A stretch of DNA of 64,000 nucleotides, from the NCBI RefSeq assembly GCF_056746865.1, contig NZ_CM163382.1; one strand, given 5' to 3'. The position numbers were made by a program, and so were the translations under genes. Below the pieces are notes generated by a model. It did no database searches. It saw nothing but the letters and a program-made list of their open reading frames with translations, and was not told the DNA's origin. Below, one piece after another: positions 40,049 to 64,000 of this stretch; positions within the stretch are counted from its first letter, which is position 1, and each line of letters starts with the position of its first letter.

Positions 40049-40058
40049 GGGTAAAACC
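40049..40058. repeat. left target-site duplication of IS186 (GGGTAAAACC)
   Basis: identical 10-bp sequence flanks both IS186 ends; an 11th base is ambiguous. Confidence 0.75.
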
Positions 40059-41397: not shown

Positions 41398-41407
41398 GGG
41401 TAAAACC
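41398..41407. repeat. right target-site duplication of IS186 (GGGTAAAACC)
   Basis: read directly after the right inverted repeat. Confidence 0.75.
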
Positions 41408-41580
41408 CCGCGTATTGAATTGTGATGGTTTGGTCTCCTGCACCCTTTTTTAATTTATATTGTTTATGTGAATATTATGCCTATGTTTATTATTCATATA
41501 TATTACTGATGAAAATTATTTGATTATTCATAATGTAAATATTTTATTGGACGATATATATCACAGATAATTTTTAATAT

Positions 41581-44280: not shown

Positions 44281-44377
44281 GATGCCTGCGACAGGGCTCT
44301 CTGAATAGTTGATACACCGAAAAGGATGGAATGATGGACAACCGACCTAGGATGGTCTTTTTTACGAGAGGATGCGT

Positions 44378-46473: not shown

Positions 46474-46487
46474 TAAAGGACTATCTC

Positions 46488-47543: not shown

Positions 47544-47553
47544 GGGGCGGCTA

Positions 47554-47630
47554 ATGAGCCAATATTTGATTTTTCAGCTTCATGGGCCAATGGCATCCTG
47601 GGGCGTCGATGCCCCGGCGAAGGGAACAAT
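47554..47630 (+). pseudogene. cas5e: cas5e (casD) 5' fragment: only about 24 N-terminal codons retained; breakpoint approximate
   Basis: MSQYLIFQLHGPMASWGVDAPAKG parallels the Cas5e N-terminus (MRSYLILRLAGPMQAWG...); the frame then runs into unrelated low-complexity sequence and stops at 107 aa; no cas6e/cas1/cas2 follow. Confidence 0.7.
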
Positions 47631-48113
47631 ACAACATCACACAAGGCCAGTAATAGCGCGAATCCTGCGAGTTCTAAAATCAATTCTATACACATTTCTA
47701 TACACATTTATCCCTCGCTTGAGGGTTATGCGTCATCGTTATCGGCTATCTCGCTGGTGGATGATCACGGATGGCCTGATATCTACAGCCGCCTTAAAAA
47801 GCTGTACCCGACAAGCATTACTGCGTATCGGGTTCGTTCGCTCTTTCTACTCGTGGCAGATGAGTTTATCGGTGTGATTTTATCGGGCGAGGGTATTGTA
47901 TCAGGCATCCCCTTTTCTATGCAGATTTGCATAGTTCCGAATGGTGGCGTTATGGAAGCCTCCCATATCAGCATCATGCCCACCAGCGTGAAGTATTTTT
48001 TTATTTCGCGGGTGTAAAAATTTGACGAGGCGGGCGGTCCCATAAGCAATGGATTGTAGGGATTTCGCTCCCCCCCTCCTGAATGCAATTTTTCGTATAT
48101 ATATACAAAACAG

Positions 48114-48270
48114 TGCGGGTTATGCGGGTTACCGGGTTATCTTAGTATGCTAACTATTTTTTGTTCTTTAGTATCAATATGTTGCAAAATACACTGTTCA
48201 TTATTCAAGCATCACATAACCCGCAAAACATCCCAAATAACCCGCAAACGCCCCAAAATAACCCGCAAAC
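48114..48270. repeat. iteron cluster A: GCGGGTTA(T/C) direct copies (48114-48140) and three inverted copies phased at 21 bp (48216, 48237, 48258), next to an AT-rich TATATATATA tract
   Basis: read directly: cagtgcgggttatgcgggttaccgggttat ... cataacccgcaaaacatcccaaataacccgcaaacgccccaaaataacccgcaaac. Confidence 0.65.
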
Positions 48271-48878
48271 ACATTGCTGAAAGCAGGGGTTGATAGTTCC
48301 ACTGGTGCCACAGAACGGCTGAATACGGTAACTGTTGCTGGTGGTCTGTCCTGTTGTCGTTCCAGTCTCATCAAATTGAGAGGCAAGACAAAGTGCATTT
48401 TTGCACTATAGCCAAAGCCTCATAAAACAGAGTTACCCCCACAGGCTGGCAAACCATTACCCAACGCAATTAAGTGCGTCAGAATCGATTACAGCGCGTT
48501 CCTGTGGCACGTTGTTGCCGTTCTCAGCAGTGAAAGGAGAGAGTGAAAAGCGCATATCTATTACTGTTGAGGGGTGTAGCGGCATATATCGCGAATATCC
48601 ACGCCCTTAATCCCGATACCGTCACGGCGCATTGAGATCCACCAGAAGATTAAGATAGTTTTTACCTGAAATTATCCAAATAATTGTTTTAACTGATTAA
48701 TTTTTCGAATATCTATTGTTAGGGAATAAATCATCAGATACACCATAAAACGACATCTTTCAGGGTGTAGAAGATGCAAAGCCGGTACTGAAGAAAAGAC
48801 AAAGAATATGAATGGCTGGCCACACGATGGAAGGATTGTCCATTGAAGGATAAATCCCCGTGGTACAAGTTTTGGTAA

Positions 48879-48899
48879 GCCCGCAGCGCGGGCTTTTTT
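48879..48899 (+). terminator. rho-independent terminator on + strand (gcccgc-agc-gcgggc + TTTTTT)
   Basis: read directly; no convincing ORF upstream of it. Confidence 0.65.
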
Positions 48900-48971
48900 G
48901 TGGACGAAACAAAAGTCAGTGCTACATTCATTGACGCCACATCGAGGTGGCTTATAGATGGAAATTTCACA

Positions 48972-49133
48972 ATGAAAAAAGCATTTGCTGCACTGTTCGT
49001 TTTGTTGTCTCTGGTAGCTTCAACTCAGGCCTTTGCCGGTCGTTGTCAGCACGACAGCGATACTGCCGCTGACGGCTCCCGCTGCGGTGGGCGTTCTGCG
49101 GATTCCCGCCCGGGCGGCGGTGGCATTCGTTAA
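48972..49133 (+). CDS. small secreted peptide (53 aa precursor): signal peptide then ~30-aa Cys-containing, Gly-rich mature region
   Basis: ATG at 48972 inside ORF 48900..49133; MKKAFAALFVLLSLVASTQAFA | GRCQHDSDTAADGSRCGGRSADSRPGGGGIR; followed by a hairpin terminator. Confidence 0.45.
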   Translation: MKKAFAALFVLLSLVASTQAFAGRCQHDSDTAADGSRCGGRSADSRPGGGGIR

Positions 49134-49136
49134 AAA

Positions 49137-49156
49137 CAAGGCCGCGAAAGCGGCCT
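49137..49156. terminator. bidirectional hairpin terminator (aggccgc-gaaa-gcggcct) between convergent small-peptide gene and cargo operon
   Basis: perfect 7-bp stem; T-tracts on both strands. Confidence 0.7.
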
Positions 49157-49162
49157 GTTTGA

Positions 49163-50014
49163 TCACTGTGCAGTTTTCGCTGATCGATTTTCAGCTCTAA
49201 ATTCAAGAACCGTTTCAATATTTCTTTCCTTCAGCATATCAATAACATTTTTATTCATTTGACTATCACTGGTTAATAACTGGTAAACGTTGCTTCTCTC
49301 TTTATCAGAATTTTCTTTAACAGCTGCTTTGCATGCCAAATGCTTATTGAAATTTTCTACATCGCTAGTACAGGAATTTACGGCTGCTGATGAAATATCA
49401 GACGCTGAAGAAACACCATCATCCAAACGTTTTATAGCATTTTCTATACATGAGTTAAGGGAATAAACGACAACTGAGCGATACCCTTCAGACGCACACC
49501 ATTCTAAATTTCTTGAAGGATCGAGTGGTTTTACTTCGCTGGATTGAATTAACTTGTCAAAAACTGACTTATATTCAATCTGTTTTTTATCTATAGCCCA
49601 TACTTCAGTAGCTGATTTATAATTCCCCGTATGCCTATTAACATCAAATCCATGTTTTATAAGCAAATCTGCCCATGAAAGATTTATTGATTCATTGTTA
49701 TGAGGCCATTTTCCTGTCAGAACCGCCCCCATAGACCCCATATATCCGCCATATGATGGTATAGCACCATGGCTCAGTAACTTCTCAGCAACCACAGGGC
49801 AATTAATTACATAAGAGGCGTAAAGCCCATTCCATAAAGCCCCTCTATAGTAATCGCCACGATTAGGTTCTTTTAAGTCGATAGCCTTTGATAATTGTTC
49901 ACACGTTTTGCATGCATCAAAGTTATCCTTATTGCATTGCAATGAACTGGCGGCTGTAGGATTTACAGAGACTATTGAAAGCACTATGCCAAAAAACAAA
50001 TTTATTTTTTTCAT
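49163..50014 (-). CDS. secreted Cys-rich protein of unknown function (283 aa), last gene of cargo operon
   Basis: N-terminal signal peptide (MKKINLFFGIVLSIVSVNPTAA); 8 Cys; strongly AT-rich codon usage; ATG one base after upstream stop (TAGGATG). Confidence 0.7.
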   Translation of the reverse strand: MKKINLFFGIVLSIVSVNPTAASSLQCNKDNFDACKTCEQLSKAIDLKEPNRGDYYRGALWNGLYASYVINCPVVAEKLLSHGAIPSYGGYMGSMGAVLTGKWPHNNESINLSWADLLIKHGFDVNRHTGNYKSATEVWAIDKKQIEYKSVFDKLIQSSEVKPLDPSRNLEWCASEGYRSVVVYSLNSCIENAIKRLDDGVSSASDISSAAVNSCTSDVENFNKHLACKAAVKENSDKERSNVYQLLTSDSQMNKNVIDMLKERNIETVLEFRAENRSAKTAQ

Positions 50015-50015
50015 C

Positions 50016-53000
50016 CTATTTCATCTGCTCTTCAACTTTATTTAGTAATGGTGATATCGCCCACAGATTCTGAAAAGGTAGCATTTTACGGACAGCGTGG
50101 GTTTGCTGGCTGTCAAATTCTCCGTTAAGTACACCATTTGCAACCGTCGCGGCATCACCGCCAAGATCAAAGGTAGGACCAAGTAAAGCACCAATAGCAT
50201 TACGACTCTGAAACCTTGATACCGGAGGCGCACCAAACATCGCGCCAAGACCAAACCTACCGCCGCTTATGTTCTCAACGGTATTCAGCGGCTCAGAGAG
50301 CCAGCCAAGCATTCCGCCCCGGTCGATCCCCTCTTTCACAAGGTTATTCCAGCTGTAGTCGATATCGCGACCGCTTAACTTCTGTTTCATCATATAGACC
50401 ATTGAGCCAAGCGCAATCGTGCCAAGCGCACCAAGATAGAATGAAGCATCGCCCTGCTGGATACCAGATACCAACACCCTGTTATGCTGTGCGAAGATAA
50501 ACGTTTTGAACTGCGTGATCATCTTCCAGCCTTCTTTACTAAAAAACAGCGGTGTATCACCTACGCCAGGCGTTACAATCACTGAGTCTACATCTTTCAG
50601 CACTGCAGACTGGAAAATCTCTCTAGCGAAACGGTCATCCCACAGATGACTATGCCCGGTTAACAGCCCGTCCATATCCTCTCCGTGCTTCCCGAATTGC
50701 TCCCCGATTCGGCGCAGAACATCTTCATTGATGCCGACCTGTGCCATCTTCCGCATTTCACTTTTGGCGAGCGTGCCACCAGCAGAAACCTGGCGAGCCG
50801 CGTCAAGTATCCTCGACTGCACTATCATCCCGGACCATGATTTAAGTGCGCTGTTCCACTGATTCATCAGCGTCCAGTTACCGAATTTCTGCGTCATCCA
50901 GTTCAGGCCTCGCTCAGCGGCGCTTCTCCGGCTATAGGGGTCAGTAAGATCCGCTATAGCCTTTGTACGCGTAGACAGGACATAATCAAGCCCAACGGCC
51001 ATTTCTCGCAAATCCCTGGTTGCAATTTTCACTGAGTCCATATTTTTAAGCATGCTTACCATTGGTCCGAGAGATTTTCTCAGGCCATGCTGCATCATCG
51101 GTCGCATCAGATCAGTTGCAGCGGAGACGGTCATTCCACCAAGCAAACGGAGGAAGTTAATATTCCTAGCAACTCGCCCGGCACGAACAAAGAAACTGCG
51201 TGGATCTTGAGGTGCGCCGTAAGTACCAAGCAGTCGGTCACGCATAGCCGTAATATCCCTAATATCAGCCTCCCGTTGCTTCTCAAGAGCTGCACGTCGT
51301 TTAGGTGTTTTAGCCTCTTTTATTAGCCGGGTATATTCCTCACTAACCTGACGGATTTGCTCCCCCATATCTTTACGGCCAAACTGCGCAGTCAGCTCAA
51401 TTTCTGGTGCCACCTGCCGGAGATAACTTTCCATGATGTAGTTAACATCTGATTCAAGAAAATCTTCTATACGCTCATCAGGAATAAGCAGCGTTCGGCT
51501 TTTAGTGAAACCAGCCCGACCAACGAGTCTCTCTGGGATAATATCGGCTGGTACAAGCCCGGAAGGTGCGCCTATTATTTTATTCACGATCTCGTCAGCA
51601 GCGTCCTCTGCTTCCTCTCGGGATAGAGGCTCCATCTGCTTCAGTGCTCGCTCGCGGCTTGCATTCAGCCTTGTGGTTGAATTTGCCCGTTTTTGCAGTC
51701 GGCGAAGCTCAGAACGATATTTCCGTGGATTATCCAGCAACTCCATATGGCGCTGATAGACAGGAAGCTCACTCTTTGCCTGCGCTATATCATCAAGGCG
51801 TGTTTTAAGGTCAGAGCTTTCTTTCATCATTCTTGCCTGAAGTTTTTCTGATGAAGTCTCGGCCAACTCTTTTTCTATTCTTGTAAGACGCGCCTGTGTG
51901 TCAGTCTCCTGAGATATAAGCTTATTTCGTTTATCCAGTTCTTCCATGAGTAGAATTTTTTTACCAGACCATTTCTCCGCTTCAGCGATTTCACTAGCGA
52001 GAGCATCAGCGCGCGGTGCCGATTCCTCTGCAGTTTTTAGCAATGAATTTATCCTTTCAATTCGCTGACCTGCTTTGTCAGCACCTTTGGCACTAATCCC
52101 TTGTATCCAGTTGGCAATTCGCCCTCTGAATTCAGTGCGGTCGGAAAGTATCTTATCGAACTTATAAATGCGGGGAAGATAACTTTTCGCCGTCACGACA
52201 TCGATATCCTCAGGAAGGATCCCCAGTTCCTGCATACGGGCTTTTGTGGTCTCGAAAATGGGGCGGATTCTGGCGGCTGCTTGTGAAACCTCAGGAATAT
52301 CACTCTGATCACCACGGCGCATAGCCATGCCAACAGCTTCATTGAAATCAATAAAGCTCATCCTCTTCACGCCGCGGGCGCTGACAGATTTGCTGTACTG
52401 CTGGTAAGCATCACGAGTGGCTTCCATCTGCTTATAAAGCATGGCGTCGTATTGCTTAATCTTAGTCTCGACTGCCGTAAACGTAGCCAACCCCTCATCA
52501 TTTTTGGCGAAGAAATAGTTATTTTCGGCAAGCTGCTGGTTAATCTGACGGGAGACAAGAGATGGTGATTGCGCCAAGCGGCCAGCAGGAGTGACACTCA
52601 ACGTTTTGTTAGCAAGTCCAAGTCCAGCGAGCTGTTCCTGATCGAGTGTGGTATTGAAAACCTGAGCTGCACCAATGCTTTGAGGAGAATCCATACCTCG
52701 CAAATGATTACCTACTGAGTTAACCACTGCCTCGCGCGCGCTAGGTCCAGCAAGTAGCTGTGCACCAGCACCAAGGATCCCACCAACGAGAGCATCAACA
52801 ACAACGTTCGATACGCTCTCCATCGGTGAGCGAGCTTCCTGAGTGGCCTGCAATGCGGCCTCTGAAGCAACACTGCCAGCAGCATTGGCTAAAGCAAAAC
52901 GTCCGGCTGTTTCTGCAATACGACCGCCACGAACGACAGCGCCGAACGGAATAAACATAGAAATCGCATTGAATGGATCTGCTAATCTCATTGCTACAGA

Positions 53001-53405
53001 AGAGACTGTACCAGCAAATCCCAAGCCTGAATTGTATTCCATGTCAGCTCTCTGCTGATCGATTCGATGTTTAATTGCCATTGTTTCTTCAGGCGAACCG
53101 GAGTTGATAAACGAATCTGCAAAATCTTCATAGCCTTTAATATCTGCTGCATCGTTATCAAATGGGTTATATCCTTCAATCCTGTCAAACTGACTGAAAG
53201 GAGCACTGGCAATAAAGCTACCCAGCGTGTTATCTATACGAAATGCTGCTTGTCTAGACCTTTGAACGCGTTGATCACTGGTAAATGGGTTCACAGCAGA
53301 AAGCAAAGAAGGTGTTTCCATATAGAAATTACTGTCATCAGGTGCTGCTATTTGCTGAATATCCTCGCCAAGCAACTCTTTAGGATCCTGTTCATATATC
53401 GGCAT
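50016..53405 (-). CDS. large protein of unknown function (1129 aa), predicted alpha-helical with Gly-rich hydrophobic C-terminal region
   Basis: long uninterrupted ORF; start overlaps upstream stop (TAATG); Q/A/E/R-rich; C-terminal hydrophobic/glycine-rich segments (GALGTIALGSMVYMM, GGRFGLGAMFGAPP); no NTPase motifs seen. Confidence 0.8.
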   Translation of the reverse strand: MPIYEQDPKELLGEDIQQIAAPDDSNFYMETPSLLSAVNPFTSDQRVQRSRQAAFRIDNTLGSFIASAPFSQFDRIEGYNPFDNDAADIKGYEDFADSFINSGSPEETMAIKHRIDQQRADMEYNSGLGFAGTVSSVAMRLADPFNAISMFIPFGAVVRGGRIAETAGRFALANAAGSVASEAALQATQEARSPMESVSNVVVDALVGGILGAGAQLLAGPSAREAVVNSVGNHLRGMDSPQSIGAAQVFNTTLDQEQLAGLGLANKTLSVTPAGRLAQSPSLVSRQINQQLAENNYFFAKNDEGLATFTAVETKIKQYDAMLYKQMEATRDAYQQYSKSVSARGVKRMSFIDFNEAVGMAMRRGDQSDIPEVSQAAARIRPIFETTKARMQELGILPEDIDVVTAKSYLPRIYKFDKILSDRTEFRGRIANWIQGISAKGADKAGQRIERINSLLKTAEESAPRADALASEIAEAEKWSGKKILLMEELDKRNKLISQETDTQARLTRIEKELAETSSEKLQARMMKESSDLKTRLDDIAQAKSELPVYQRHMELLDNPRKYRSELRRLQKRANSTTRLNASRERALKQMEPLSREEAEDAADEIVNKIIGAPSGLVPADIIPERLVGRAGFTKSRTLLIPDERIEDFLESDVNYIMESYLRQVAPEIELTAQFGRKDMGEQIRQVSEEYTRLIKEAKTPKRRAALEKQREADIRDITAMRDRLLGTYGAPQDPRSFFVRAGRVARNINFLRLLGGMTVSAATDLMRPMMQHGLRKSLGPMVSMLKNMDSVKIATRDLREMAVGLDYVLSTRTKAIADLTDPYSRRSAAERGLNWMTQKFGNWTLMNQWNSALKSWSGMIVQSRILDAARQVSAGGTLAKSEMRKMAQVGINEDVLRRIGEQFGKHGEDMDGLLTGHSHLWDDRFAREIFQSAVLKDVDSVIVTPGVGDTPLFFSKEGWKMITQFKTFIFAQHNRVLVSGIQQGDASFYLGALGTIALGSMVYMMKQKLSGRDIDYSWNNLVKEGIDRGGMLGWLSEPLNTVENISGGRFGLGAMFGAPPVSRFQSRNAIGALLGPTFDLGGDAATVANGVLNGEFDSQQTHAVRKMLPFQNLWAISPLLNKVEEQMK

Positions 53406-56152
53406 TATTTGCCCCCTGCGTATATATTGCTCGGAAGGTAATTGGCTGAACCATAACCGAATGGTTTGGTCAGATCTGGAGGAGTATATCCATCTTTATT
53501 GCTGAACTGCGGCAGCGGATTGCCTTCTCTCCGCACTCTAGCCTCATCAACACGCTGTTGCTGGAACTGAATGGTTTGCCTGTACATTGGAGATGTCAGC
53601 TGATCCGGCTTGAAACGAACAGGGAGACCATTTTCTCCAATATAATTTCTCGGTTCTATCGCTCCGTTTGCGTCAGGCTGTAAAACCATAACAGCATAAC
53701 TCCTATCCCTTGCCGTAAGGCCATCAGAAACAAGTATTAAGTCCGTATCACTGCGAGGACCGCCAAAGGATTTTGATTTAAGCTCGCGTTTTTCCTGCTC
53801 CCACTGCCCCTGTATCCAGTTACCAGCACCATTATTTACTCCGTACAATGCCTCAGGTGCATACTTCATAACCTCTGCTTTGCCATTAACCGTAGAAACT
53901 CCCCAGGTGGTTCTGATCATGGCATTGGTCATTTTCTCAGCCTGTTCTGCATCGCCACCTGTCTGTACAAAGTTAGCATCGTAAATTGTCTGGTAATCTC
54001 GCTGATAGGCCGCATTTGATTTTCCTGGATCGGTAATATCCGGAGACCACGAACCAAAGGAAGTCAGACTGCTGGCGTTATTTTGTGCAGCAGTTACCCT
54101 CGCCGCGACATATTTTTTGTCTCGCATGGCAGTGGAAAGCATCTGTTTCATTCGGTCATCCTGTTGGAACACCTGACTGTAAGCCATATCAACAGCCTTA
54201 TCCTCCGGCACGCCAGCGCGGGAATAATCGTAAACCTTGCCATAAAATGCCATCGTACTTTTATCAAGTGTTGCCGCTGCCGCCGGATTATTATCGAATA
54301 ACTGACCGTAGAATTTTGCCATCGGGACAACCAGCGCAGGATCTCTTGATGTTGCTCCACTGTTAAGCATTGTTTTAACCTGAGTTGGTATCATGCCGCT
54401 TTTAGTTGTGACGGTGACCAGTGTATTGATGCTCTGCGGATCAGATATGGAAAACGAAGGCGCGATATCCTGCGCGAAATAACGGTCTACCGCTGCCTGA
54501 TTGTTTTTGTCGTTCGGGTCCAGCGGGAAGTTATTTTGCATTGAAGACACGAACCTGTTTCTTCCCTGCTGAATCTCCCACTCCCTATCCATCTCTTTAA
54601 ATTTGGCCTGCATTTTCTCCCAGCGTTGCTGGTTAGCAGCAAATCCAGGAGCATTTGGATCCTGTGGACGTAAACGTTCAAGAATGTCTTGTCGTCCTTC
54701 TGGAGTGAGGTCTTTAGCGGCACCAATGACACCTCCATATTGTATCTGCGCCTGCATATCCTTCCACTTCATAGCGCCAATGCGCGGACCATTGGCCCGG
54801 ATAAAATCGTCCTCAGAAGGTAACTTCTCAGGTTTCAATCCTTCATCAAGGGCTGAATATGCATCTTTAACTACGGTGCTAAGCTGGTCCGCATACTGCT
54901 GGCGGTACTGATTTCTCAGCTCATTAGCCTGCCTCAATGCCTGTATTTGCATTTGAGGGCTCATAGCATCAAATGCCGCATTGCCCGTATAACGCTTAGG
55001 TGAATCAAGGTTAGTTAGACCAAGGGCTGCCGAGATACCAGTTTCAAGCTGTTCGGTGCTATAAGGCATACTGCCATTTTCGTGTTTAATAATCCCAGCA
55101 CATAAAGCAGCTAGTGTCTTTGGGTTAGAGATATCAAGCTGATCATTCTCCCCAACACCAAGCTCACCACACAATGCCCTAATATAAGCATCAGTATTAT
55201 TACCATCACTAGCCGGAGCATAGCGATTAACAATCTCGCTAACGGTGTCATAGCCTTGACGCTGGTAAGACAACATATTTTTACCCAACGCGCGGATTCC
55301 ATGCTCAGGGGTAGCAAACGTTGCAAAACGTCCATCGCTACCGATCTGACCTTCCCACGGGTTAGATTTGCTCGCTTCAATATTACCAGGGTTATTATTA
55401 CGTAAACCACGAGCATCCAATGAATTACCATGTGATATTGCACGACTCACACCATCAAGATCCCCTGGCTCTCCATTAACCTGAAGAAACTCGTTGTATT
55501 TTTGAGCGATATTTCCTATCCATGCTTGCTGCCCCATTTGTTCCTTGAGCTGAGTTTTCTGCTGAACACGCCACTCATCAGGAAGCCCATGCGCATCAGC
55601 GTATTGATCAATAGATTCAAATCGCTGCTTGGCTAAATCGACAAATGCTTGGTTATAGCTATATAGCCCCGCAGACTGAGTGACAGCCAATGCATTTCCT
55701 GACAAATACGTTTGATCTTGGAATTGCTGAAACTGCCCAACTTCATATCGACGTGCCTGATTGTAATAAGACTGCATAGACTGCTGGAGTTGAAAGGATA
55801 ATTTATTCCTTTCCTCACTTTCAGGGATTGAGCCTAATAATGCCTGAGCCCTTTCCTGCATATTTTTCATAACAGCGTCACTCTGACCAAGAGCGTTTTT
55901 ACCCTGTTTAGAAATCAGCCCATTTTCAGGGTTGTTAATCTGGTCATCTGCAAATTGGTTAAATTGCAGTAACGCCTCCTGGGCCATAGCAACATTCGCT
56001 TTCTGCCTGGCTTCACCATATGCCACCGCATACTGATCTGCGACATTCGCCAGCACCTGACCTGCTTGAGGAACATCGAAGGTCTGAAAACCACCGGTTT
56101 GCACACCACGACTTTGCACCTGGCGTCCGGATGTAGTAGGAACAACAAGCAT
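53405..56152 (-). CDS. large protein of unknown function (915 aa), Q/N/A-rich
   Basis: ATG at 56152 preceded by TAGGAGGT Shine-Dalgarno; contains conserved-looking block RGLRNNNPGNIEASKSNPWEGQ...; no NTPase motifs seen. Confidence 0.8.
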   Translation of the reverse strand: MLVVPTTSGRQVQSRGVQTGGFQTFDVPQAGQVLANVADQYAVAYGEARQKANVAMAQEALLQFNQFADDQINNPENGLISKQGKNALGQSDAVMKNMQERAQALLGSIPESEERNKLSFQLQQSMQSYYNQARRYEVGQFQQFQDQTYLSGNALAVTQSAGLYSYNQAFVDLAKQRFESIDQYADAHGLPDEWRVQQKTQLKEQMGQQAWIGNIAQKYNEFLQVNGEPGDLDGVSRAISHGNSLDARGLRNNNPGNIEASKSNPWEGQIGSDGRFATFATPEHGIRALGKNMLSYQRQGYDTVSEIVNRYAPASDGNNTDAYIRALCGELGVGENDQLDISNPKTLAALCAGIIKHENGSMPYSTEQLETGISAALGLTNLDSPKRYTGNAAFDAMSPQMQIQALRQANELRNQYRQQYADQLSTVVKDAYSALDEGLKPEKLPSEDDFIRANGPRIGAMKWKDMQAQIQYGGVIGAAKDLTPEGRQDILERLRPQDPNAPGFAANQQRWEKMQAKFKEMDREWEIQQGRNRFVSSMQNNFPLDPNDKNNQAAVDRYFAQDIAPSFSISDPQSINTLVTVTTKSGMIPTQVKTMLNSGATSRDPALVVPMAKFYGQLFDNNPAAAATLDKSTMAFYGKVYDYSRAGVPEDKAVDMAYSQVFQQDDRMKQMLSTAMRDKKYVAARVTAAQNNASSLTSFGSWSPDITDPGKSNAAYQRDYQTIYDANFVQTGGDAEQAEKMTNAMIRTTWGVSTVNGKAEVMKYAPEALYGVNNGAGNWIQGQWEQEKRELKSKSFGGPRSDTDLILVSDGLTARDRSYAVMVLQPDANGAIEPRNYIGENGLPVRFKPDQLTSPMYRQTIQFQQQRVDEARVRREGNPLPQFSNKDGYTPPDLTKPFGYGSANYLPSNIYAGGK

Positions 56153-56248
56153 CAGTAACCTCCTATTTTGAATCGGGAGTCAGAATTCATAAAACCTGAG
56201 TTAGATAACATTGGCGTCCCTCTGCTTTGATGCTGTACCAGCGATTCA

Positions 56249-56455
56249 TTACTCACCCCCCGATGCAAAACCATTCTGATTAAGCCAGGCGTTTACGGCA
56301 TGTCTGACAATCTGCGCCACGCCTGGTAATGGCTGATCAGGGTGATTGTTCACATGGTCGATTCTGTACTGCTTAAGGCGCATCACGGTCTGTGCATCCA
56401 GATGAACGGAACCACCTCTGACATCGCCTGTGTTCAGGTCGTTAATACAATTCAC
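56249..56455 (-). CDS. small protein of unknown function (68 aa), first gene of cargo operon, GTG start
   Basis: GTG start preceded by AAGAGGAAA Shine-Dalgarno at optimal spacing; AT-rich putative promoter region upstream (56456-56554). Confidence 0.55.
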   Translation of the reverse strand: MNCINDLNTGDVRGGSVHLDAQTVMRLKQYRIDHVNNHPDQPLPGVAQIVRHAVNAWLNQNGFASGGE

Positions 56456-56554
56456 AGCAATTTCCTCTTACTGACTAAACTATGCACATTATTGATCTGA
56501 AAAAGTGGTAGATAAACATATTTCTATCACAAAAACAGATTAATTGATTTCAGC

Positions 56555-56580
56555 CAAAAAAAAGCCGGATTGCTCCGGCT
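56555..56580 (-). terminator. rho-independent terminator on minus strand (agccgga-ttgc-tccggct with A-run on + strand)
   Basis: read directly; separates the IS200/IS605 element from the cargo-operon promoter. Confidence 0.6.
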
Positions 56581-56785
56581 CTGTGCTTACTTCTGGTAGT
56601 TACGCCATACTGATTTCCCGATCCCATCTATCCCCATTTCTTTTTCAGTGCGTTTAAGCGACCGTTTCAGGTCTTCTAAATTATCCGGTTGCTTCGGTGG
56701 CCTCTGTGCCTTCCTGGAACATTCCAGTCGTCGCATTGATATTTGACATCCTCCACGCCCTGAAGGACGTGGATTCCTGCTACGT

Positions 56786-57994
56786 TCAGGCTGTCGCCTG
56801 AATCATTTCGGTGGGTTCCTGCTTCAACGGGCGGCCTGACTGCACCATCCCTCCACAGGCAAGAACGGCGTGCCCCGCCGCTAAAATGTTACGAGCGCCG
56901 TTTACATCGGCGTTCGCTGTATATCCACATACCTGGCATCTGAATTGACTTTGTGACAGGCGATTTTCTTTCGCTGTATGACCACAGCACGCGCAACGCT
57001 GGCTTGTGTACGCTGGCGGAACAGCAAGCACCTGACCGCCACACCAGAGCTGCTTGTACTCAAGCTGACGGCGCATTTCATACCAGCCCTGATCCAGTAT
57101 CGAACGGTTTAAACCTGATTTTGCCCGGACATTGCGCCCCGGCTGGCTGACCGTACCCGAGGCTGACTTTGACATGTTGCTGACCTTCAAATCCTCAATG
57201 ACTATCATTGCGTGGTTTTTGCTGATGGTCGTTGTGACTTTGTGAAGGTAGTCCCTGCGGATATTTGCGATACGGGAATGCAGTCGCTGTATTTTGCGTT
57301 TCTGCTTCTGCCAGTTGTTGCTGAATTTAACCTTGCGGCTTAACTGGCGCTGAAGTCTCGCCAGCTTCTTCTGGTTTTTATGAAAACTGTTTACAGGCTC
57401 AAAGACCGTGCCATCTGACAGCGTGGCGAGTTTAGCCACGCCAGCATCCAGCCCGACCATTAATGCTGAAGGGTGAACCGGAGTTGATACTTCACTTTCT
57501 GTCTGAATACTGATGTACCACTTACCGCAGGACTGGCTGACAGTGACATTTTTCACAACACCCGTGACCTGACGGCTGTTCCGGTAGCGCATCCAGCCCA
57601 GTTTCGGCAGAAAAATACGGCTGTTTTCCTGATCGAGCTTAACACCCTGCGGATAGCGGAATGCATCATGCTGTCCCCGCTTTTTGAATCGGGGAAAAGC
57701 GGCACGCTTCTGAAAGAAATTTTTGTAGGCTCGCTCAAGGTCTTTCAGTGACTGCTGCAATGGCTGTGAGGGAGAATCTTTAAGCCATTGCGTTTCAGTA
57801 GCATTTTTCCATTCAACCAGCCAGGAAGTCATCTTTGCATAAGAAATATATTTGTTCCCGGCCTCATGATTCTCATTCTGAAGCGCCAGAGCACGATTGA
57901 AAACGAAACGACATGCGCCCGCGAAGCGCCTCATTTCACGCTCCTGTTTTCCATTTGGTCTTAACTGGAATTTGAAAGCTTGTAGTCGTTTCAT
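56786..57994 (-). CDS. tnpB: TnpB (OrfB), RuvC-like RNA-guided nuclease of IS200/IS605 elements
   Basis: 402-aa ORF; C-terminal zinc-finger cysteines (CACCGH...CQVCGY) and RuvC-like blocks. Confidence 0.85.
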
Positions 57995-58016
57995 ATGCCA
58001 AATTATACTTTGGCCT

Positions 58017-58433
58017 ATGAAAAAAGAAACCGATATCCGACGTGGAAGGCACTGTGTCTTCCTGATGCACGTTCACCTGGTCTTTGTTACCAAGTACCGA
58101 CGCCAGATTTTTGACCATGACGCAATAGAAAAACTACGCACTTACTTTTCAAGTGTATGTGCTGATTTTGAAGCTGAACTGGTTGAAATGGATGGAGAAC
58201 GAGATCACGTTCACCTGCTAATTAACTATCCTCCCAAATTGGCGATATCCACCCTGGTGAACAGTCTCAAGGGCGTATCGAGTAGATTATTGCGACGAGA
58301 TCGACCAGATATTGCAGTCAGGTATTACTACAAAGGCGTTTTATGGAGTCCCAGCTATTTTGCCAGTAGCTGCGGAGGTGCGCCAATATCCATCATCCGC
58401 CAATACATTGAACAACAGCAAACACCTAGTTAG
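58017..58433 (+). CDS. tnpA: IS200/IS605 TnpA, Y1 HuH transposase
   Basis: ORF 57897..58433; preferred ATG at 58017 (MKKETDIRRGRH...); HuH motifs (HVHLVF, HVHLLI) and C-terminal catalytic Tyr region (RQYIEQQ). Confidence 0.85.
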   Translation: MKKETDIRRGRHCVFLMHVHLVFVTKYRRQIFDHDAIEKLRTYFSSVCADFEAELVEMDGERDHVHLLINYPPKLAISTLVNSLKGVSSRLLRRDRPDIAVRYYYKGVLWSPSYFASSCGGAPISIIRQYIEQQQTPS

Positions 58434-58516
58434 GTGGAAAACCGCGCCTTATATCCCCGACCTGAAGGACGGGGCTTTACGGCGCACTGGGTAATTACTC
58501 TGTTCGCTGTTGTGAA

Positions 58517-58942
58517 TTAAAACGGTATCCCGTCCCCGTACGGATCATCGTGCTGGCCTGTCTGTTGCTTTGCCCTGTTCAGTGCATCAGTAGCCTGCCC
58601 CTGCTGGCCTTTTTTGCCGCCCGGTCGCGCCGTTCGCGCACTGATTACGCTGTCTGCGATAACCTGCCATCCCTGCCTCGTTTCGCCGTTCTGGCCCGTC
58701 CACCAGCTCACCTGCATGTTACCGGCCACGCTCACCAGTTCGCCTTTGTGGTGTTTTGCCAGTGCGTCAGCCTGTCTGCCAAACGCCAGGACGGATAACC
58801 ACATCGTCGCCGTTCCGTCATCTGTCTGATTGCATGGAAGGGGGACCGCCATACTCGCCATCGCCATTTGTGTGCCCTTGCTGGTGGTCTTTAACTGCGG
58901 GTCAGCCACCAGCCGCCCGTAAGCTGATATTTGCGCCGTCAT
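58517..58942 (-). CDS. ssb: single-stranded DNA-binding protein (SSB-like), 141 aa
   Basis: OB-fold-like sequence and C-terminal acidic tip ending ...DDPYGDGIPF (compare E. coli SSB ...DDDIPF). Confidence 0.75.
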   Translation of the reverse strand: MTAQISAYGRLVADPQLKTTSKGTQMAMASMAVPLPCNQTDDGTATMWLSVLAFGRQADALAKHHKGELVSVAGNMQVSWWTGQNGETRQGWQVIADSVISARTARPGGKKGQQGQATDALNRAKQQTGQHDDPYGDGIPF

Positions 58943-59001
58943 GCTGTTTGTTCTCCGGTTTTAACGTGATAGTTACGCTTGTTTACACTCTTACAGTGAA
59001 A

Positions 59002-59129
59002 TTTTGCGGGTTACAATCGCACATTTGCGGGTTATAACTGCCGTTTTGCGGGTTACGTGCGGGTTATTAATTTCCTTTTTAATCATTCAGTTAATTAACT
59101 TATGCACAGGATAACCCGCATAACCCGCA
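59002..59129. repeat. iteron cluster B: four direct copies of TTTGCGGGTTA(C/T) plus two inverted copies (ATAACCCGCA), immediately 3' of the primase-helicase gene
   Basis: read directly: ttttgcgggttac ... tttgcgggttat ... tttgcgggttac gtgcgggttat ... ataacccgcataacccgca. Confidence 0.7.
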
Positions 59130-59152
59130 ACTTTTTACCTCACACAGGGAAG

Positions 59153-61279
59153 TTAATCTTCTGCTTCAGGCTGGAACATCAGCACGTAAAAAATATGTTG
59201 CTTCCCGCCAATCCTGCCGAGCGCCTTTTTCTTGTAACGGCGGTCGCCTCCCGCTTCCAGCATTCCGGCTGCACTCAACGCGCGGGCAAAGTGAGACGGA
59301 TTAAATCCCTGTGCTATCTCACCCTCAAACACATGCGGGAACGTGTAAAAACGGAACTCGTCATCTTCGTTTCTGATACTCCCCTTTCTGTATCCGGCAA
59401 GGTCTTTAATCGGTAAATCACGCTCGTCGCTGTTTGGATAGGGAAGGTATCGACTGAACCCGAACGACGACAAAAACGCCTCAGCCTGTTCAACCATCTG
59501 TTTAAACTCCCTGTTCCCCGTGCCGAACTCCTTCACCCAGGCATTAAAATTATGCTGAATGGCATCGCGGCATTCCTGCTCATCCCAGCCAGTAACATGA
59601 CCGGAAAGTACAAGCGCGGCCTCCAGTATGGCGAATCGTTCCCCCACACGGTGAACCTGTTCGCCGTAGCTCTCCGGTATCAGGTTGCGCCACCGCTCGC
59701 GACATGCCCTTACCGCGTCCTTTGCCTCCTGCTGGTGTTCTGCCAGCCATTTAACCCACTCACGACCTGCCGCCCCGTGATTTTCTGTCCAGGCATCTTT
59801 TAACGCGTCTGCGTGCGCCTTTCCGGTGCTGTATTCGTGAAACTGCGAGGCCTTTTCCATCGGCACGTTAAGCAGACGGACAAGCTGCCCCGCTTTAATT
59901 TTTATCCCTTCCGTTTTGAGGAATGTTTCAACGTCCATTTCTCCGGTGCTGATTGCCACCGTGCGCCAGTGTTTTATCTCCCTGTTGCCGCCGTCCTTCG
60001 CCCCCTGTAATTTCCCCGAACCGTTAAACAGCGTATAGGCTGACGTGGACACCTCCCGCGCGTTTCCGGCCTGGCCTATTTCATCCAGGGGTAACAGCCC
60101 GTCATTATGTGCTTCGGCCTCGTTGGCGATACCTAACGCCGTTCCGTACCAGGTCAGCCGTTGCGCGTCCGGCTCTCCCCATAAACTTGATGCAATGTTC
60201 TGTGTGGTGGTTTTACCTGCTGATGATTGCTCAAAAAGATGAACCCCGAAGCCGTCAGCACCCACCAGCCCGATTAATGGTGCAGATAGCGATACCGCCA
60301 CACCCAGCATCATGGACGGATTACCACCAGCCAGCCGTGCCACGGTATCGCGCCAGCCCTCCGCTGTTCCCGCCACGGAATAGCCATTAACAGCGGCAGT
60401 TTTTCCGGTAAACAGGATGGGTTTCTCTGATTCACCGATGATCGAACCATCCGGCATGATGTACGCACCAAAATGCCACCCCGTTGTTGTGCTTAACTGC
60501 CATTCCTCATGGTTTCCGCTTAACTGCATCCAGTCAGCCAGGATAGCCCTGTATTTGCCGTTGGTCGTCACGTTAAGGCCGTGGTCTTTCAGCAACCGCC
60601 AGCCGTCACGGTCACCAATGCCTCCGCACGGGACCGCCATTGTAATGACCTCATGGTTTGCTGGTTTTTTCCAGCGCATCACGCGGTAATGCTCTTTGCC
60701 GATTGTTCCTGTTCCCAGTAGTTCAAGCGGAGAACATAACCACGTCTCAGGCCGGATAATTTCGCCTGACTGCTTGTCCACTTTGGGCGTTACCCAGAAA
60801 ACACCATCGACGCGACTTTCAACACGAGGCTTTAATTCGTCATCATAATTTCCGGTGAAATTTGTCTTCGCCGGAAGGTTGATCACCAGACTGTTACCGC
60901 GTTCCGCATCATACTTCAGTCCAGCCATGCGCGGAGTCCAGTCCTCCGGCTGCTGATCAACAAAGCTGCGGTAGCAACGCGCCTCCTTCACACCCGCCAC
61001 TGCAAGCAGTGTCGCTATCTGTGTAAGGTGCTGCTCTGATATTTCACCAGCACGATAAATGCGCACGTAATAGCGTCCTTTGTCGATGATTTGCGTGTCT
61101 GCCAGACTCGCCAGTTGTTCCGGTCCAAGAATAACTGGATGTGTATCATCTGCCGCAATATGCTTTCCGGCCCATTCGCTCCACTCTTTCGCATGTGCCC
61201 AGGCATCACTACCCGCAAAGATAATCACCTCCGTCATTTTGTCTTTCGGCTGGTGCTTTAAATTCGGTGCGCGTTTCAT
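59153..61279 (-). CDS. replication primase-helicase (P4 alpha-like)
   Basis: 708-aa ORF; helicase Walker A-like (SSAGKTT) and Walker B-like (LLPLDEI) blocks; adjacent iterons; typical of satellite/island replication modules. Confidence 0.8.
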   Translation of the reverse strand: MKRAPNLKHQPKDKMTEVIIFAGSDAWAHAKEWSEWAGKHIAADDTHPVILGPEQLASLADTQIIDKGRYYVRIYRAGEISEQHLTQIATLLAVAGVKEARCYRSFVDQQPEDWTPRMAGLKYDAERGNSLVINLPAKTNFTGNYDDELKPRVESRVDGVFWVTPKVDKQSGEIIRPETWLCSPLELLGTGTIGKEHYRVMRWKKPANHEVITMAVPCGGIGDRDGWRLLKDHGLNVTTNGKYRAILADWMQLSGNHEEWQLSTTTGWHFGAYIMPDGSIIGESEKPILFTGKTAAVNGYSVAGTAEGWRDTVARLAGGNPSMMLGVAVSLSAPLIGLVGADGFGVHLFEQSSAGKTTTQNIASSLWGEPDAQRLTWYGTALGIANEAEAHNDGLLPLDEIGQAGNAREVSTSAYTLFNGSGKLQGAKDGGNREIKHWRTVAISTGEMDVETFLKTEGIKIKAGQLVRLLNVPMEKASQFHEYSTGKAHADALKDAWTENHGAAGREWVKWLAEHQQEAKDAVRACRERWRNLIPESYGEQVHRVGERFAILEAALVLSGHVTGWDEQECRDAIQHNFNAWVKEFGTGNREFKQMVEQAEAFLSSFGFSRYLPYPNSDERDLPIKDLAGYRKGSIRNEDDEFRFYTFPHVFEGEIAQGFNPSHFARALSAAGMLEAGGDRRYKKKALGRIGGKQHIFYVLMFQPEAED

Positions 61280-61578
61280 TTCTTGCCCCTGAATGCGTTA
61301 ATCATGTTCTTTATTACCTGAATATTTGCCCGTGCTTTCTCTTTACTGGTGGGCTTACTGCGTGGTGCTGCACATACCAGTGAAAAATCACGCCGGAACT
61401 GATGAACGGGCATCACACAGTCATAGTCGTACCCTGCGCGGCGGTATGTAATGTGCCGTTCATACACGGAATTAATAACCACGCTGTCGCCATATTTATC
61501 CCGGAAAATATCCCCGATCCTGATTTTCGGATGAGTCTGTCCGCTGGCATTTAAGCCAGTAAATTTAATCTTCTTCAT
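61276..61578 (-). CDS. hypothetical protein (100 aa), translationally coupled to primase-helicase
   Basis: ATG start; stop overlaps downstream start. Confidence 0.55.
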   Translation of the reverse strand: MKKIKFTGLNASGQTHPKIRIGDIFRDKYGDSVVINSVYERHITYRRAGYDYDCVMPVHQFRRDFSLVCAAPRSKPTSKEKARANIQVIKNMINAFRGKK

Positions 61579-61580
61579 GT

Positions 61581-61838
61581 TTATTTCCCGGTGTGAGGTT
61601 CTTCTTTATATTTATGGGCTAACAAATCTGGTAATTGCCTGTATTTATCCTCGGCAATATATTCAGAATAATCGACAGCACTGTTCAGTATATCTAACGC
61701 CGTTTCATGCTCCAGATTCGAAACTATAAGGAACGTTGCTACTTTTAGCATATTCGCGATATGCAAAAGAGCATCAATTTCATTTTTTGGCGCTTCACTG
61801 AATTTTTGCTCCAGAAGAATAAATCGTTCATCACGCAT
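61581..61838 (-). CDS. hypothetical protein (85 aa)
   Basis: ATG start; 2-bp gap to next gene. Confidence 0.55.
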   Translation of the reverse strand: MRDERFILLEQKFSEAPKNEIDALLHIANMLKVATFLIVSNLEHETALDILNSAVDYSEYIAEDKYRQLPDLLAHKYKEEPHTGK

Positions 61839-62034
61839 AGTATTCCCCCTGACGGATGCGGGCAGTAAATACCATCACGCAGCCAGCCGGGGATTGCTGG
61901 CGTGCTTCCTGTTCGCTGGTGGCCACGATGGTAATCACACGCGGTTTTGCGGCGCTCAGGGCGATAAAACGCCAGGCGAATTTATTCAGGTTGTGCGAAT
62001 CCCGCCCTTGCGGGTGTATGGTATGATTTCTCAT
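61831..62034 (-). CDS. hypothetical protein (67 aa), likely first gene of the replication operon
   Basis: internal ATG at 62034 of the 415-aa ORF 61831..63078; stop overlaps next start (ATGCGTGA); the upstream 348 codons overlap the operator and the Arc-like gene and are unlikely to be real. Confidence 0.4.
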   Translation of the reverse strand: MRNHTIHPQGRDSHNLNKFAWRFIALSAAKPRVITIVATSEQEARQQSPAGCVMVFTARIRQGEYYA

Positions 62035-62129
62035 AGCTACCTCGATACTCTCGTTATCGTTGGTGGTTAGAAGCCCTGCGAGTGGTAACGACACTTGCGG
62101 GGCTTTGTTTTTTGTTGCACTTACTGTTA

Positions 62130-62175
62130 ATGTACGTACGTAATATTGATGATAATAGGAGTTACGTACGTACAT
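62130..62175. promoter_or_regulatory. perfect 14-bp inverted repeat ATGTACGTACGTAA (18-bp spacer), putative operator
   Basis: half-sites 62130-62143 and 62162-62175 read directly; overlaps the start codon of the Arc-like gene and sits upstream of the divergent replication operon. Confidence 0.6.
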
Positions 62176-62365
62176 GTCAACATTAAAGCGGGATAAATCA
62201 CCACGCGGCGAGGGATGGTCGCCGACATTCCAGATACGAATTAGCAAAGAACTACGCCAGCAAGTAAACGAGGCAGCAACCGCCGATGGCCTAACCCTCG
62301 GCAATTGGTTTAAAGAATTAGCTCGTGCCGAACTAAAGCGACGCGGCATTGAACCTAAAGGCTGA
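62174..62365 (+). CDS. Arc/Mnt-like ribbon-helix-helix DNA-binding protein (63 aa)
   Basis: ...PTFQIRISKELRQQVNEAATADGLTLGNWFKELARAELKRRG resembles P22 Arc (...PQFNLRWPREVLDLVRKVAEENGRSVNSEIYQRVMESFKKEG); divergent from the minus-strand operon. Confidence 0.6.
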   Translation: MSTLKRDKSPRGEGWSPTFQIRISKELRQQVNEAATADGLTLGNWFKELARAELKRRGIEPKG

Positions 62366-62917
62366 TGTATGACTGAAAAGCAGACCGATAACAAACTTTC
62401 TCTACCAGAGAATAAACCAGCAGGCTTCTTACCAAGAAAAATCCTTGATGAGATCAAACGCCGCCAGCGGCGCAAGGCCAAAGAGCAGGAGTAACCATCA
62501 CCAGCGCCGTGGTGCGGTGAACTGTGGCGCACAGGGTTACAGGTATCTACGATGACTGACAAATCATTAAAGAAATTATCCTCATCCAGGAAAAAACAAC
62601 GCAAAAATGCGGTAAGCGAACAAGAACAGGAAAGATTTGCGCCATGTGCGTTTGTCCTTGAGAAGTTCTTAAAAGAGTACAGGCGCACAAAAATGGAATC
62701 GCATACCTGGAAAACATCGCAGTATGGCGATGCTAAAGAGCAGGAATAGCCCACCAGCAAGCCAGCACACTGATCACATTGCCCACCAGCCGCAAATCTG
62801 GCATTGTTGGCGATGCGTTTGATTTCCTTTGTTCCCACTGGCGACCTATCCCGGTCGCCTTTGTTTTGCCTGTTATCCAGCAACGGGGCGCTTTTTCTTT
62901 CTGTAACGTTCGGATCG

Positions 62918-63475
62918 TTACACATTGCTTTCACCCTCCAGAAAATCAGGCTGATATTTACGCCATAGCGCCCGCTCTTCTCGTTCCAGTGCATCTTTTG
63001 CCTCTTTGCATTGCTGTAACCTGTAACCGCGTTTGCTGGCTTCCTGTTGATATGCAGCCTGACGTTTACTGAAATCATTCAGCATGGCAAACGGAACACC
63101 ATAACCCCCCGTTTTGCGGATTGAAGGAATCACCTCGCGGAATACCCAGTTACTGAAACGGTGCGCAAATGTGCCTGGTGTGGAAGCTTTACGGCTGCGG
63201 GCGATCAGTTTGTAGAAACCTGATTCAGAGACAACATTCCAGCTTCTGGCACCACCACGCTTACCGGAATGACCCTCGGTTAAAGCTAGGGTCATTACCT
63301 CATCGTTATCCAGAACTGAAACGGCATCAGTAACATTGCTGATTTCCAGCGCGGCACACACATCAGCGCCAACAAACCACGGCTCGCCGTTGATACTCAC
63401 TATGCGCACCTGAATGTCATCGAATTTAATGACAGAGATTTCAGTGCGACCGGCATAAAAGACAGGTTTACGCAT
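62918..63475 (-). CDS. Bro-N domain protein (phage antirepressor-like)
   Basis: 185-aa ORF; Bro-N-like N-terminus (...[37 protein letters not shown]...). Confidence 0.7.
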
Positions 63476-63950
63476 GGCTGCTCACCTCCATGCGGCGGGC
63501 TAACCAGCGTTGCGAAAGACGAATTAATTCAGCTTTCCGCTGGTGGTAGTCCTGGCCTAACTCAATCAGCGTGATATTGCTCTGCTCAAGGTAAGAAAGG
63601 TGCTCAAGCTGCAGCGTGCTCATGTGGTCGCGTGGTTCGCCTGTGATGCCGTTCGCCTGCGCCCACTGTTTTGCATTCATGCCACCCAGCACGATACGCG
63701 CCAGCATATTGGCTTCCGTGGTGTAGTGGTGCTGGAGCGTGTTTTTACCCAGTTCAGCCCGGTACGCCTCCAGCGCGGCACACATTGGCTTAAAGTAGCT
63801 GGCTACGGTGATACGGGCTTTCAGTTCCCGGCGTAACGCTGCGGAACGTACAGGCGCTACCTTGTGTAGCTCCTCCTCGCATTTGATGAAGTACTGACGA
63901 ACGGCGCGGCCCTGTTCGGTGCGTTCGATCATTGCCAGTTCTTTCGCCAT
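63468..63950 (-). CDS. hypothetical phage-like regulatory protein (160 aa)
   Basis: ATG-initiated ORF overlapping the Bro-N gene start by 8 bp; no motif I can assign. Confidence 0.5.
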
Positions 63951-64000
63951 TCCGACACTTAACAGATAGTCTTTACCGGGTCTGCCAGAGTGCTTAATCT

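Follow-up and report, generated by a model that had tools for sequence, protein, structure and literature searches.

Secondary-site (pseudo-attB) integration by the tyrosine integrases of temperate phages and islands belongs to the classical biology of lambda and of P2/P4. CRISPR-Cas loci are also entered by mobile elements. Prophages of Streptococcus pyogenes integrate into CRISPR repeats and so evade immunity (Varble et al.; bioRxiv 10.1101/2020.10.09.333658), and transposition of insertion sequences (IS) into cas genes inactivates CRISPR-Cas, type I-E included (Nat Commun 2023, PMC10359306). Among phage satellites, EcCIMP1 is a 20-kb phage-inducible chromosomal island (PICI) of E. coli MP1, whose induction and transfer by the temperate podophage Kapi1 have been demonstrated by experiment (ISME J 2025, PMC11773190). 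Here, we analyzed a stretch of 64,000 nucleotides (hereafter the window) from contig NZ_CM163382.1 of assembly GCF_056746865.1, in which a type I-E cas operon is cut inside cas5e and runs into a satellite related to EcCIMP1. Our favored explanation, to which we give a probability of about 0.8, is that a PICI-type satellite with its home site at the 3' end of the tRNA-Gly gene glyU was inserted in cas5e by its integrase at a secondary attB, which split the operon. In literature searches, we came across no report of a satellite or prophage inserted in cas5e.

The break in cas5e and its 7-bp core

We compared the junction region by megablast with 5426 complete E. coli genomes, and a second run was made with a 200-nt query centered on the break. 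The alignments split in two: the cas side was matched by thousands of genomes, while other loci matched only from query position 266/267. This corresponds to window position 47615/47616, where the satellite homology begins. With the 200-nt query, intact cas5e genes matched up to window position 47622, the end of the host homology. Host and element homologies therefore overlapped on exactly 7 bp, GGCGAAG (47616-47622); the overlap region of tyrosine recombinases is usually 7 bp. The features on the two sides of the break are as follows.

41581-44280, plus strand: cas3, intact; 899-aa open reading frame (ORF), identical to the annotated Cas3 of E. coli SW071620
44378-45940, plus strand: cse1/casA, intact; equivalent to SW071620 (L009) 13379-14941, annotated casA, with no differences
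45937-46473, plus strand: cse2/casB, intact, from the ORF and the comparison with SW071620
46488-47543, plus strand: cas7e/casC, intact; 351-aa ORF, identical to cas7e of SW071620
47554-47622, plus strand: 5' fragment of cas5e; 21 correct codons, then the loss of one C at 47616 and the crossover core
47616-47622, plus strand: 7-bp core GGCGAAG, common to cas5e, the tRNA-Gly (glyU) 3' end and the satellite attP in a nine-junction alignment
47623-47715, plus strand: integrase-distal (P') arm, 98-100% identical to the distal ends of glyU-resident satellites

The closest genome was that of E. coli SW071620 (L009), which is collinear with window 31000-47622 (L009 1-16624) at 99.988% identity. Across these 16.6 kb, the two sequences differed at just two places: position 40836, within IS421, carries a substitution, and a C is missing at 47616. 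SW071620 has an intact cas5e (248 aa), downstream of which lie cas6e, cas1 (a pseudogene), cas2, the CRISPR array and iap. This genome is thus the empty site, with an uninterrupted target, in a near-identical background. Both its cas5e site and its glyU are unoccupied.

On the other side of the break, the sequence from 47616 was 98-100% identical to the integrase-distal end of an element that lies at glyU, beside actS and xdhA, in many E. coli. The best overall match was the CS5L glyU satellite, with 98.4% identity over 81% of window 47616-64000. This agrees with a preliminary description of the window, made from its letters alone, which had placed a satellite-like mobile element after the break. 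The same description had taken cas3, cse1, cse2 and cas7e to be intact, and these are indeed uninterrupted ORFs, base for base the same as the SW071620 genes annotated as intact. It had also proposed mapping the breakpoint against an E. coli genome with an intact operon, as SW071620 allowed us to do. Its statement that cas5e is broken early was correct, but the number of codons kept is 21 of 248 (MSQYLIFQLHGPMASWGVDAP) rather than about 24. The core covers codons 22-24, and the 107-aa ORF at 47554-47877 reads, after the 21 correct codons, out of frame into non-coding DNA of the satellite.

No cas5e 3' part, cas6e, cas1 or cas2 was found anywhere in the window, again as first described; matches to this part of the locus were limited to CRISPR repeats at 21264-21850 and 23692-23776. 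With cas5e homology stopping at 47622, the window does not hold the intact cas5e of a complete type I-E interference module, nor does it hold cas6e, cas1 and cas2 in one operon with a cas-adjacent array. The Cascade gene set was thus rightly called incomplete, cas5e being split after about 21 codons.

Further evidence came from an alignment of nine junctions, which set the junction of the window beside uninterrupted cas5e, the two junctions of a related insertion and the two ends of each of two elements residing at glyU. The cas5e attB reads GATGCCCCC GGCGAAG TGCGTCAT (in the longer form of this alignment, GTCGATGCCCCC GGCGAAG TGCGTCATACCC), and the tRNA-Gly glyU attB, written as the reverse complement of the tRNA 3' end, reads TTGGAGCG GGCGAAG GGAATCGAACCC. 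The arms of the element are ...GAAATGTTTGTTTGGAGCG at the integrase side and GGAACAATACAAC... at the distal side. Left products read cas5e, the core and GGAACAATAC, and right products TTGGAGCG, the core and TGCGTCAT; the window has the order cas5e-left, GGCGAAG, distal arm. The junction thus lies in a core that is identical between the att site of the element and the target. The cas5e site equals the tRNA site at 18 of 29 positions; outside the core, 11 of the 22 flanking positions agree, including TC..ACCC on the right (counted from the alignment). The P' arm contains tandem TCTATACACATTT repeats (family D1), and similar TATACAC motifs adjoin int in the glyU satellite fS10a (L001). From their sequence, these repeats are likely to be arm-type integrase binding sites.

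A 1-nt loss directly 5' of GGCGAAG was observed at window position 47616 and also in the distal att of the glyU copies in fS10a (L001, about 20003) and ETEC1747 (L023, about 15575). It is absent from CS5L and from the cas5e junction of ETEC1747.

In the mechanism that we propose, the tyrosine integrase of the satellite would have recombined attP with a secondary attB in cas5e through the shared core GGCGAAG. The window shows the cas5e(5')-core-P' junction, and the reciprocal P-core-cas5e(3') junction would be expected about 3-4 kb past position 64000. The sequence in between should contain the rest of antA, an AlpA-type helix-turn-helix (HTH) protein, a 265-aa protein and a 404-aa integrase, then ...GAGAAATGTTTGTTTGGAGCGGGCGAAGTGCGTCATACCCATGAACTGCC..., after which the 3' part of cas5e, cas6e, cas1, cas2, CRISPR1 and iap should follow.

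Recurrence at cas5e and the home site at glyU

Four other assemblies carry relatives of the element, with the same integrase, at exactly the same position of cas5e. Among the complete genomes, one of 5426 (ETEC1747) spanned the cas5e junction. In this genome, a 73-nt stub of cas5e is separated by a related element of about 10 kb from the cas5e 3' part, cas6e, cas1, cas2, CRISPR and iap. Its right junction, TTGGAGCG GGCGAAG TGCGTCAT, is the exact reciprocal product. PGAP calls the downstream fragment a 231-aa Cas5e that starts from a TTG inside the element arm (MFGAGEVRH...), while it really lacks the first 21 residues. An exact-protein look-up with this Cas5e fragment led to three further assemblies. 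In one of them, GCA_036681765 (L005), an intact 404-aa integrase directly adjoins the junction, and, as in ETEC1747, the reciprocal junction is followed by the cas5e 3' part, cas6e, cas1, cas2, CRISPR1 and iap. In the other two, both draft assemblies (L007 and L008), contigs begin at the reciprocal junction with (G)TTTGTTTGGAGCGGGCGAAGTGCG. In the related insertions, the integrase gene beside the cas5e 3' part is transcribed away from cas5e.

Because the relatives with both ends visible (ETEC1747 and GCA_036681765) are clean insertions, we expect the missing cas genes of the window about 3-4 kb past 64000. The preliminary description had the operon breaking off and being replaced by the element; the interruption stands, but the replacement is probably wrong.

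We also considered that the junction might be an assembly chimera joining a cas contig to a satellite contig, since the drafts L007 and L008 start at this junction and the missing C could be a homopolymer error. However, an assembler would not be misled by a shared stretch of just 7 bp, the join coincides precisely with the biological crossover core, and the same junction type occurs in two independently finished genomes. Such an artifact is therefore highly improbable.

The integrase found at cas5e has a distinct primary site, since it is present at glyU in fS10a, CS5L and ETEC1747, the Int proteins differing by 2-11 aa. Compared with the Int of the glyU copy of ETEC1747, the Int beside cas5e in L005 has 2 changed residues; compared with that of CS5L and fS10a, it has 10 (97.5% identity). 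Most of the places returned by a look-up of the BRO-N protein of the window were likewise satellites at glyU. ETEC1747 carries one satellite twice, 99.9% identical, in inverse orientation and about 140 kb apart (L023 3359-15600 at glyU and L002 20278-30380 at cas5e). The glyU copy is intact, and the cas5e copy lacks the int-AlpA segment. This double occupancy is the classical picture of secondary-site integration with the primary site occupied, and the inverted pair is also a potential substrate for a large chromosomal inversion.

The other cas5e elements have a RepA/AAA_25 helicase instead of the DUF927 primase of the window and other cargo, and they lie in a host cas allele that is about 5-9% divergent. 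The L005 and ETEC1747 elements themselves show a mosaic identity of 82-99%. Since the cas5e elements differ in replication module, cargo and host cas allele, the simplest reading of these sequences suggests repeated independent integrations.

An inversion of roughly 115-135 kb would be another way to join the distal end of a glyU-resident satellite to the 5' part of cas5e, either through crossover of the distal att core with that of cas5e or, if two inverted copies of the satellite were present, through homologous recombination between them. The gene orders show that the cas5e and glyU cores are inverted on the chromosome, so that an inversion would yield exactly the junction seen. ETEC1747 does carry two inverted copies, and glyU is empty in the nearest relative, so that a first integration would be expected there. 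The two explanations make different predictions: after an inversion, the window should continue to int, tRNA-Gly, actS and xdhA, with the cas5e 3' part and cas6e-cas2 about 0.1 Mb off beside yqeG/ETT2, whereas after an insertion, int and then TTGGAGCGGGCGAAGTGCGTCAT with the cas5e 3' part should follow past 64000. However, recombination of attL or attR with a bare attB is not a normal reaction of integrases, and wherever the cas5e 3' side is visible in the related cases (four of four), it carries the integrase-proximal P arm, as in plain insertions. There was also no sign of an inversion within the window. We therefore regard this alternative as distinctly unlikely. A large deletion between cas5e and a glyU-resident element was ruled out, because the two loci are inverted and only an inversion could give the junction.

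Several points nevertheless weigh against insertion at a secondary site followed by loss of function. The window stops inside the element, short of the integrase, of the second junction and of the downstream cas genes of this strain, and the right junction of its element was recovered neither by pattern scans nor by protein look-ups. Exact-pattern scans of the GTDB species representatives and the JGI metagenomes for the predicted right junction and the left junction of the window found none. Exact-protein look-ups of the 107-aa fusion ORF and of a modeled truncated Cas5e of the SW071620 allele gave no match, and the look-up of the window BRO-N protein returned only satellites located either at glyU or at a second site near yicC, and none at cas5e. 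The window junction has four C where the empty site has five, and clean exchange does not predict this loss, which may reflect an imprecise exchange, later slippage or a homopolymer sequencing error. With glyU free in the nearest relative SW071620, we have no explanation for the use of a secondary site here, unless the strain also has a glyU copy. Finally, with respect to loss of function, type I-E of E. coli is normally silenced by H-NS (Pul 2010 and Westra 2010, as cited in PMC10359306).

Gene content of the satellite

By comparison with CS5L, the element would measure about 19.5 kb, of which 16.4 kb are visible and about 3.1 kb lie beyond the window. In CS5L, the order is the distal att, virion-core genes, PerC, ProQ, SSB, DUF927 primase, DUF4222, Icd-like, small regulators, BRO-N and AntA, then an AlpA-type HTH protein, the 265-aa protein, the 404-aa tyrosine integrase and tRNA-Gly. 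In the window, the element contains the following features.

48114-48272: iteron cluster A, with two direct and three inverted GCGGGTTA units flanking an AT-rich spacer
48875-56220, minus strand: EC.W1-9-like block, 99.4% identical to positions 18666-26011 of the temperate podophage EC.W1-9; PHROG matches phrog_342 (internal virion protein) and phrog_1044/992
49163-50014, minus strand: 283-aa secreted-type protein, within the EC.W1-9-like block
50016-53405, minus strand: 1129-aa DUF919 internal virion protein, within the EC.W1-9-like block
53405-56152, minus strand: 915-aa protein, within the EC.W1-9-like block
56743-58490: IS200/IS605-family insertion, seen as a homology gap relative to CS5L and fS10a
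56786-57994, minus strand: tnpB, of the RNA-guided-nuclease type (NCBIfam TnpB, E=8e-117)
58017-58433, plus strand: tnpA (NCBIfam IS200 TnpA, E=3e-43)
58517-58942, minus strand: SSB (phrog_44; annotated as SSB in relatives)
59003-59128: iteron cluster B, immediately downstream of the primase gene; an AT-rich spacer is surrounded by four direct and two inverted GCGGGTTA units
59153-61279, minus strand: DUF927 primase-helicase, 708 aa (phrog_1139 DNA primase, E=6e-175; 62.5% aa identity to the EcCIMP1 primase)
61276-61578, minus strand: DUF4222 protein (profile scans)
61581-61838, minus strand: 85-aa protein (ORF)
61831-62034, minus strand: Icd-like protein (profile scans)
62174-62365, plus strand: 63-aa ORF, possibly a ribbon-helix-helix or YlcI/YnfO-like regulator (weak, sub-threshold matches)
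62918-63475, minus strand: BRO-N anti-repressor-like protein (phrog_2593, E=5e-55); the identical protein is common among E. coli satellites that reside at glyU or at a second site
63468-64000, minus strand: AntA/AntB antirepressor gene, incomplete because the window ends here; its complete counterpart in CS5L has 825 nt

From its sequence and gene order, we class the inserted element as a PICI-type phage satellite of the Gram-negative, EcCIMP1-like kind. It has its own primase (DUF927) and an adjacent iteron cluster at 59003-59128, as a PICI should, and the CS5L and fS10a elements, which are 98% identical to it, have a tyrosine integrase and an AlpA-type regulator in a region that the window does not reach. 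Of the 14 occurrences of the 8-mer GCGGGTTA in the window (1.85 expected), 11 fall in the two clusters. Cluster B is the probable replication origin, because its position matches that in staphylococcal and Gram-negative PICIs. When all large ORFs were scanned with PHROG, NCBIfam and Pfam, the visible element showed no capsid, portal, terminase, tail or lysis genes, only homologues of virion-core and ejection proteins, and PADLOC found no defense model match for any ORF of the element.

We also considered a P4-like satellite. No PHROG or NCBIfam match to Psu, Delta, Sid or Epsilon (the core set also includes the alpha primase) was obtained among the scanned ORFs, and the annotated relatives lack them, so this assignment was rejected.

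The 7.3-kb block at 48875-56220 is contiguous in phage EC.W1-9, where it adjoins a core gene of the T7 gp14 family. No significant Pfam match was found for its 915-aa and 283-aa proteins. Because the block is 99.4% identical to EC.W1-9, much as the ejection genes of EcCIMP1 resemble those of its helper, EC.W1-9-like phages are the obvious helper candidates. The IS200/IS605 insertion stands in place of about 1 kb that codes for PerC, a 138-aa protein and ProQ/FinO in the closest relatives. Neither the phage block nor this insertion figured in the preliminary description, which had correctly recognized the primase-helicase, SSB and Bro-N genes as well as the iterons. Its Arc-like repressor was not confirmed, since the ORF at 62174-62365 gave only sub-threshold scores (YlcI/YnfO, E=4e-4; HicB, 0.006; Arc, 0.28).

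The same BRO-N/primase backbone was also observed with a different integrase, of 422 aa, at a second site near yicC, rph and pyrE (L012, L018, L019 and L021). Because one backbone thus carries either integrase, the integration modules of this satellite family appear to be exchangeable.

Elsewhere in the window, a CRISPR2 array with 10 repeats and nine spacers lies at 21274-21851, with a degenerate two-repeat remnant 1.8 kb beyond it (23692-23776). At about 40108-41226, a copy of IS421 (IS4 family) separates a hok/sok-like locus from cas3, which starts about 355 bp further on; this copy is present too in SW071620 and the other closest genomes.

Consequences for CRISPR function and comparison with known systems

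Intact Cas5e aligns with K-12 CasD from residue 1, and its N-terminal motif YLI..L.GPM..WG is the best-conserved stretch. The insertion would leave 21 aa of the protein on one side and, on the other, the rest without a natural start and without a promoter. To judge from the sequence, the split after residue 21 should abolish functional Cas5e and hence Cascade, so that the complex with bound CRISPR RNA could not assemble. The cas6e, cas1 and cas2 genes would be uncoupled from the cas promoter and would have gained no obvious replacement, because the adjoining integrase gene of the related insertions is transcribed away from them. Type I-E interference and adaptation would thus be lost. The window array had been said to be neither processable nor usable. 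It should indeed be unusable, because Cas5e has been separated from its N-terminus, where conservation with K-12 CasD is highest, but the statement on processing goes further, as cas6e probably persists downstream, cut off from the cas promoter. The insertion may have little effect on fitness, since type I-E is normally repressed by H-NS and cas1 is already a pseudogene in SW071620.

This raises the question whether cas5e is a selected target, i.e. an alternative site maintained because the integration removes Cascade in hosts whose arrays are directed against the satellite or its helper. If so, integration itself would act as an anti-CRISPR, and satellites would survive in hosts with spacers against virion-core genes that they have in common with their helper. 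The cas5e site has been used repeatedly by different elements, and the prophages that evade immunity by integrating into CRISPR repeats provide a precedent (bioRxiv 10.1101/2020.10.09.333658). Moreover, a CRISPR1 spacer of SW071620 (TTAACTTCCTGCGTCTGCTTGGGGGAATGGCC; L009 19818-19849) matches the gene of the 1129-aa protein of the satellite (window 51160-51129, minus strand) at 28 of 32 positions, with a perfect seed at positions 1-10. The same target sequence is present in phage EC.W1-9, and the mismatches fall mostly on synonymous sites. This match is the only hint that cas5e is a maintained landing site. However, the protospacer-adjacent motif at the match is ATA, which is non-canonical (AAG or ATG being canonical), and the spacer is old, as it was found in 128 of the 5426 E. 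coli genomes, always inside a CRISPR array. Furthermore, none of the nine CRISPR2 spacers of the window matches the element, related satellites or EC.W1-9, no spacer of the other insertion-bearing genomes matches the satellites, and cas1 of SW071620 is a pseudogene. The junction is also rare, with a single case among the complete genomes and none in the GTDB species representatives or the JGI metagenomes, and the regular site of the integrase is clearly glyU rather than a CRISPR locus. Selection for the removal of Cascade is thus unlikely. Given the rarity of the junction, glyU as the clear primary site and the action of one integrase at both sites, the insertion most resembles an infrequent off-target (secondary-site) event and not a strategy dedicated to countering CRISPR. 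Its practical importance would be limited by this rarity and by the usual silence of type I-E in E. coli, and the expected phenotypic impact is modest. The glyU attB and the cas5e pseudo-attB, with their 7-bp core, do form a defined pair with which the target choice of a widespread E. coli satellite integrase can be studied.

Integration at cas5e resembles classical pseudo-attB integration in that a short core is identical to attP, the flanks are partly like those of the primary attB, the site is used more rarely than the primary one and, in ETEC1747, the primary site is occupied alongside. It differs in that the site lies inside a defense gene and has been used repeatedly by different members of one satellite family.

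The element itself shares with EcCIMP1, in the same order, int, an AlpA-type HTH protein, AntA, an Icd-like protein, DUF4222, a DUF927 primase, a podophage block of DNA-ejection and virion-core genes, PerC and a distal att, those of its parts that lie beyond the window or were lost from it being taken from the glyU relatives. The amino acid identities are 66% for Int, 62.5% for the primase and 75% for AntA. The ejection-like genes of EcCIMP1 resemble those of its helper Kapi1, just as the block described here is 99.4% identical to EC.W1-9. On the other hand, EcCIMP1 lies at tRNA-Thr beside proA and the present element in cas5e, the ejection genes of EcCIMP1 are P22-like and unrelated to those found here (no BLASTP match), and the present element has SSB and the IS200/IS605 insertion and has lost PerC/ProQ. 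Helper-driven excision, replication and packaging have been shown for EcCIMP1 only (PMC11773190); for the present element, known from its sequence, a similar life cycle would be expected.

As with the S. pyogenes prophages, an integrase-bearing element lies inside a CRISPR-Cas locus and would impair immunity. In S. pyogenes, however, the CRISPR repeat is the regular attB of the prophages and the effect on immunity has been shown experimentally, whereas here a satellite occupies a cas gene at a secondary site, with an effect that is deduced. Like IS transposition, the present case is a natural inactivation of CRISPR-Cas by a mobile element inside a cas gene; unlike the IS, which are 1-2 kb long and insert at many positions, a satellite of roughly 20 kb has entered by site-specific recombination at one 7-bp core. 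Beside IS transposition and prophage integration into CRISPR repeats, mobile elements would have here a third natural way to disrupt CRISPR-Cas loci, the new feature being that a phage satellite enters a cas gene at a site resembling the tRNA target for which its integrase is specific.

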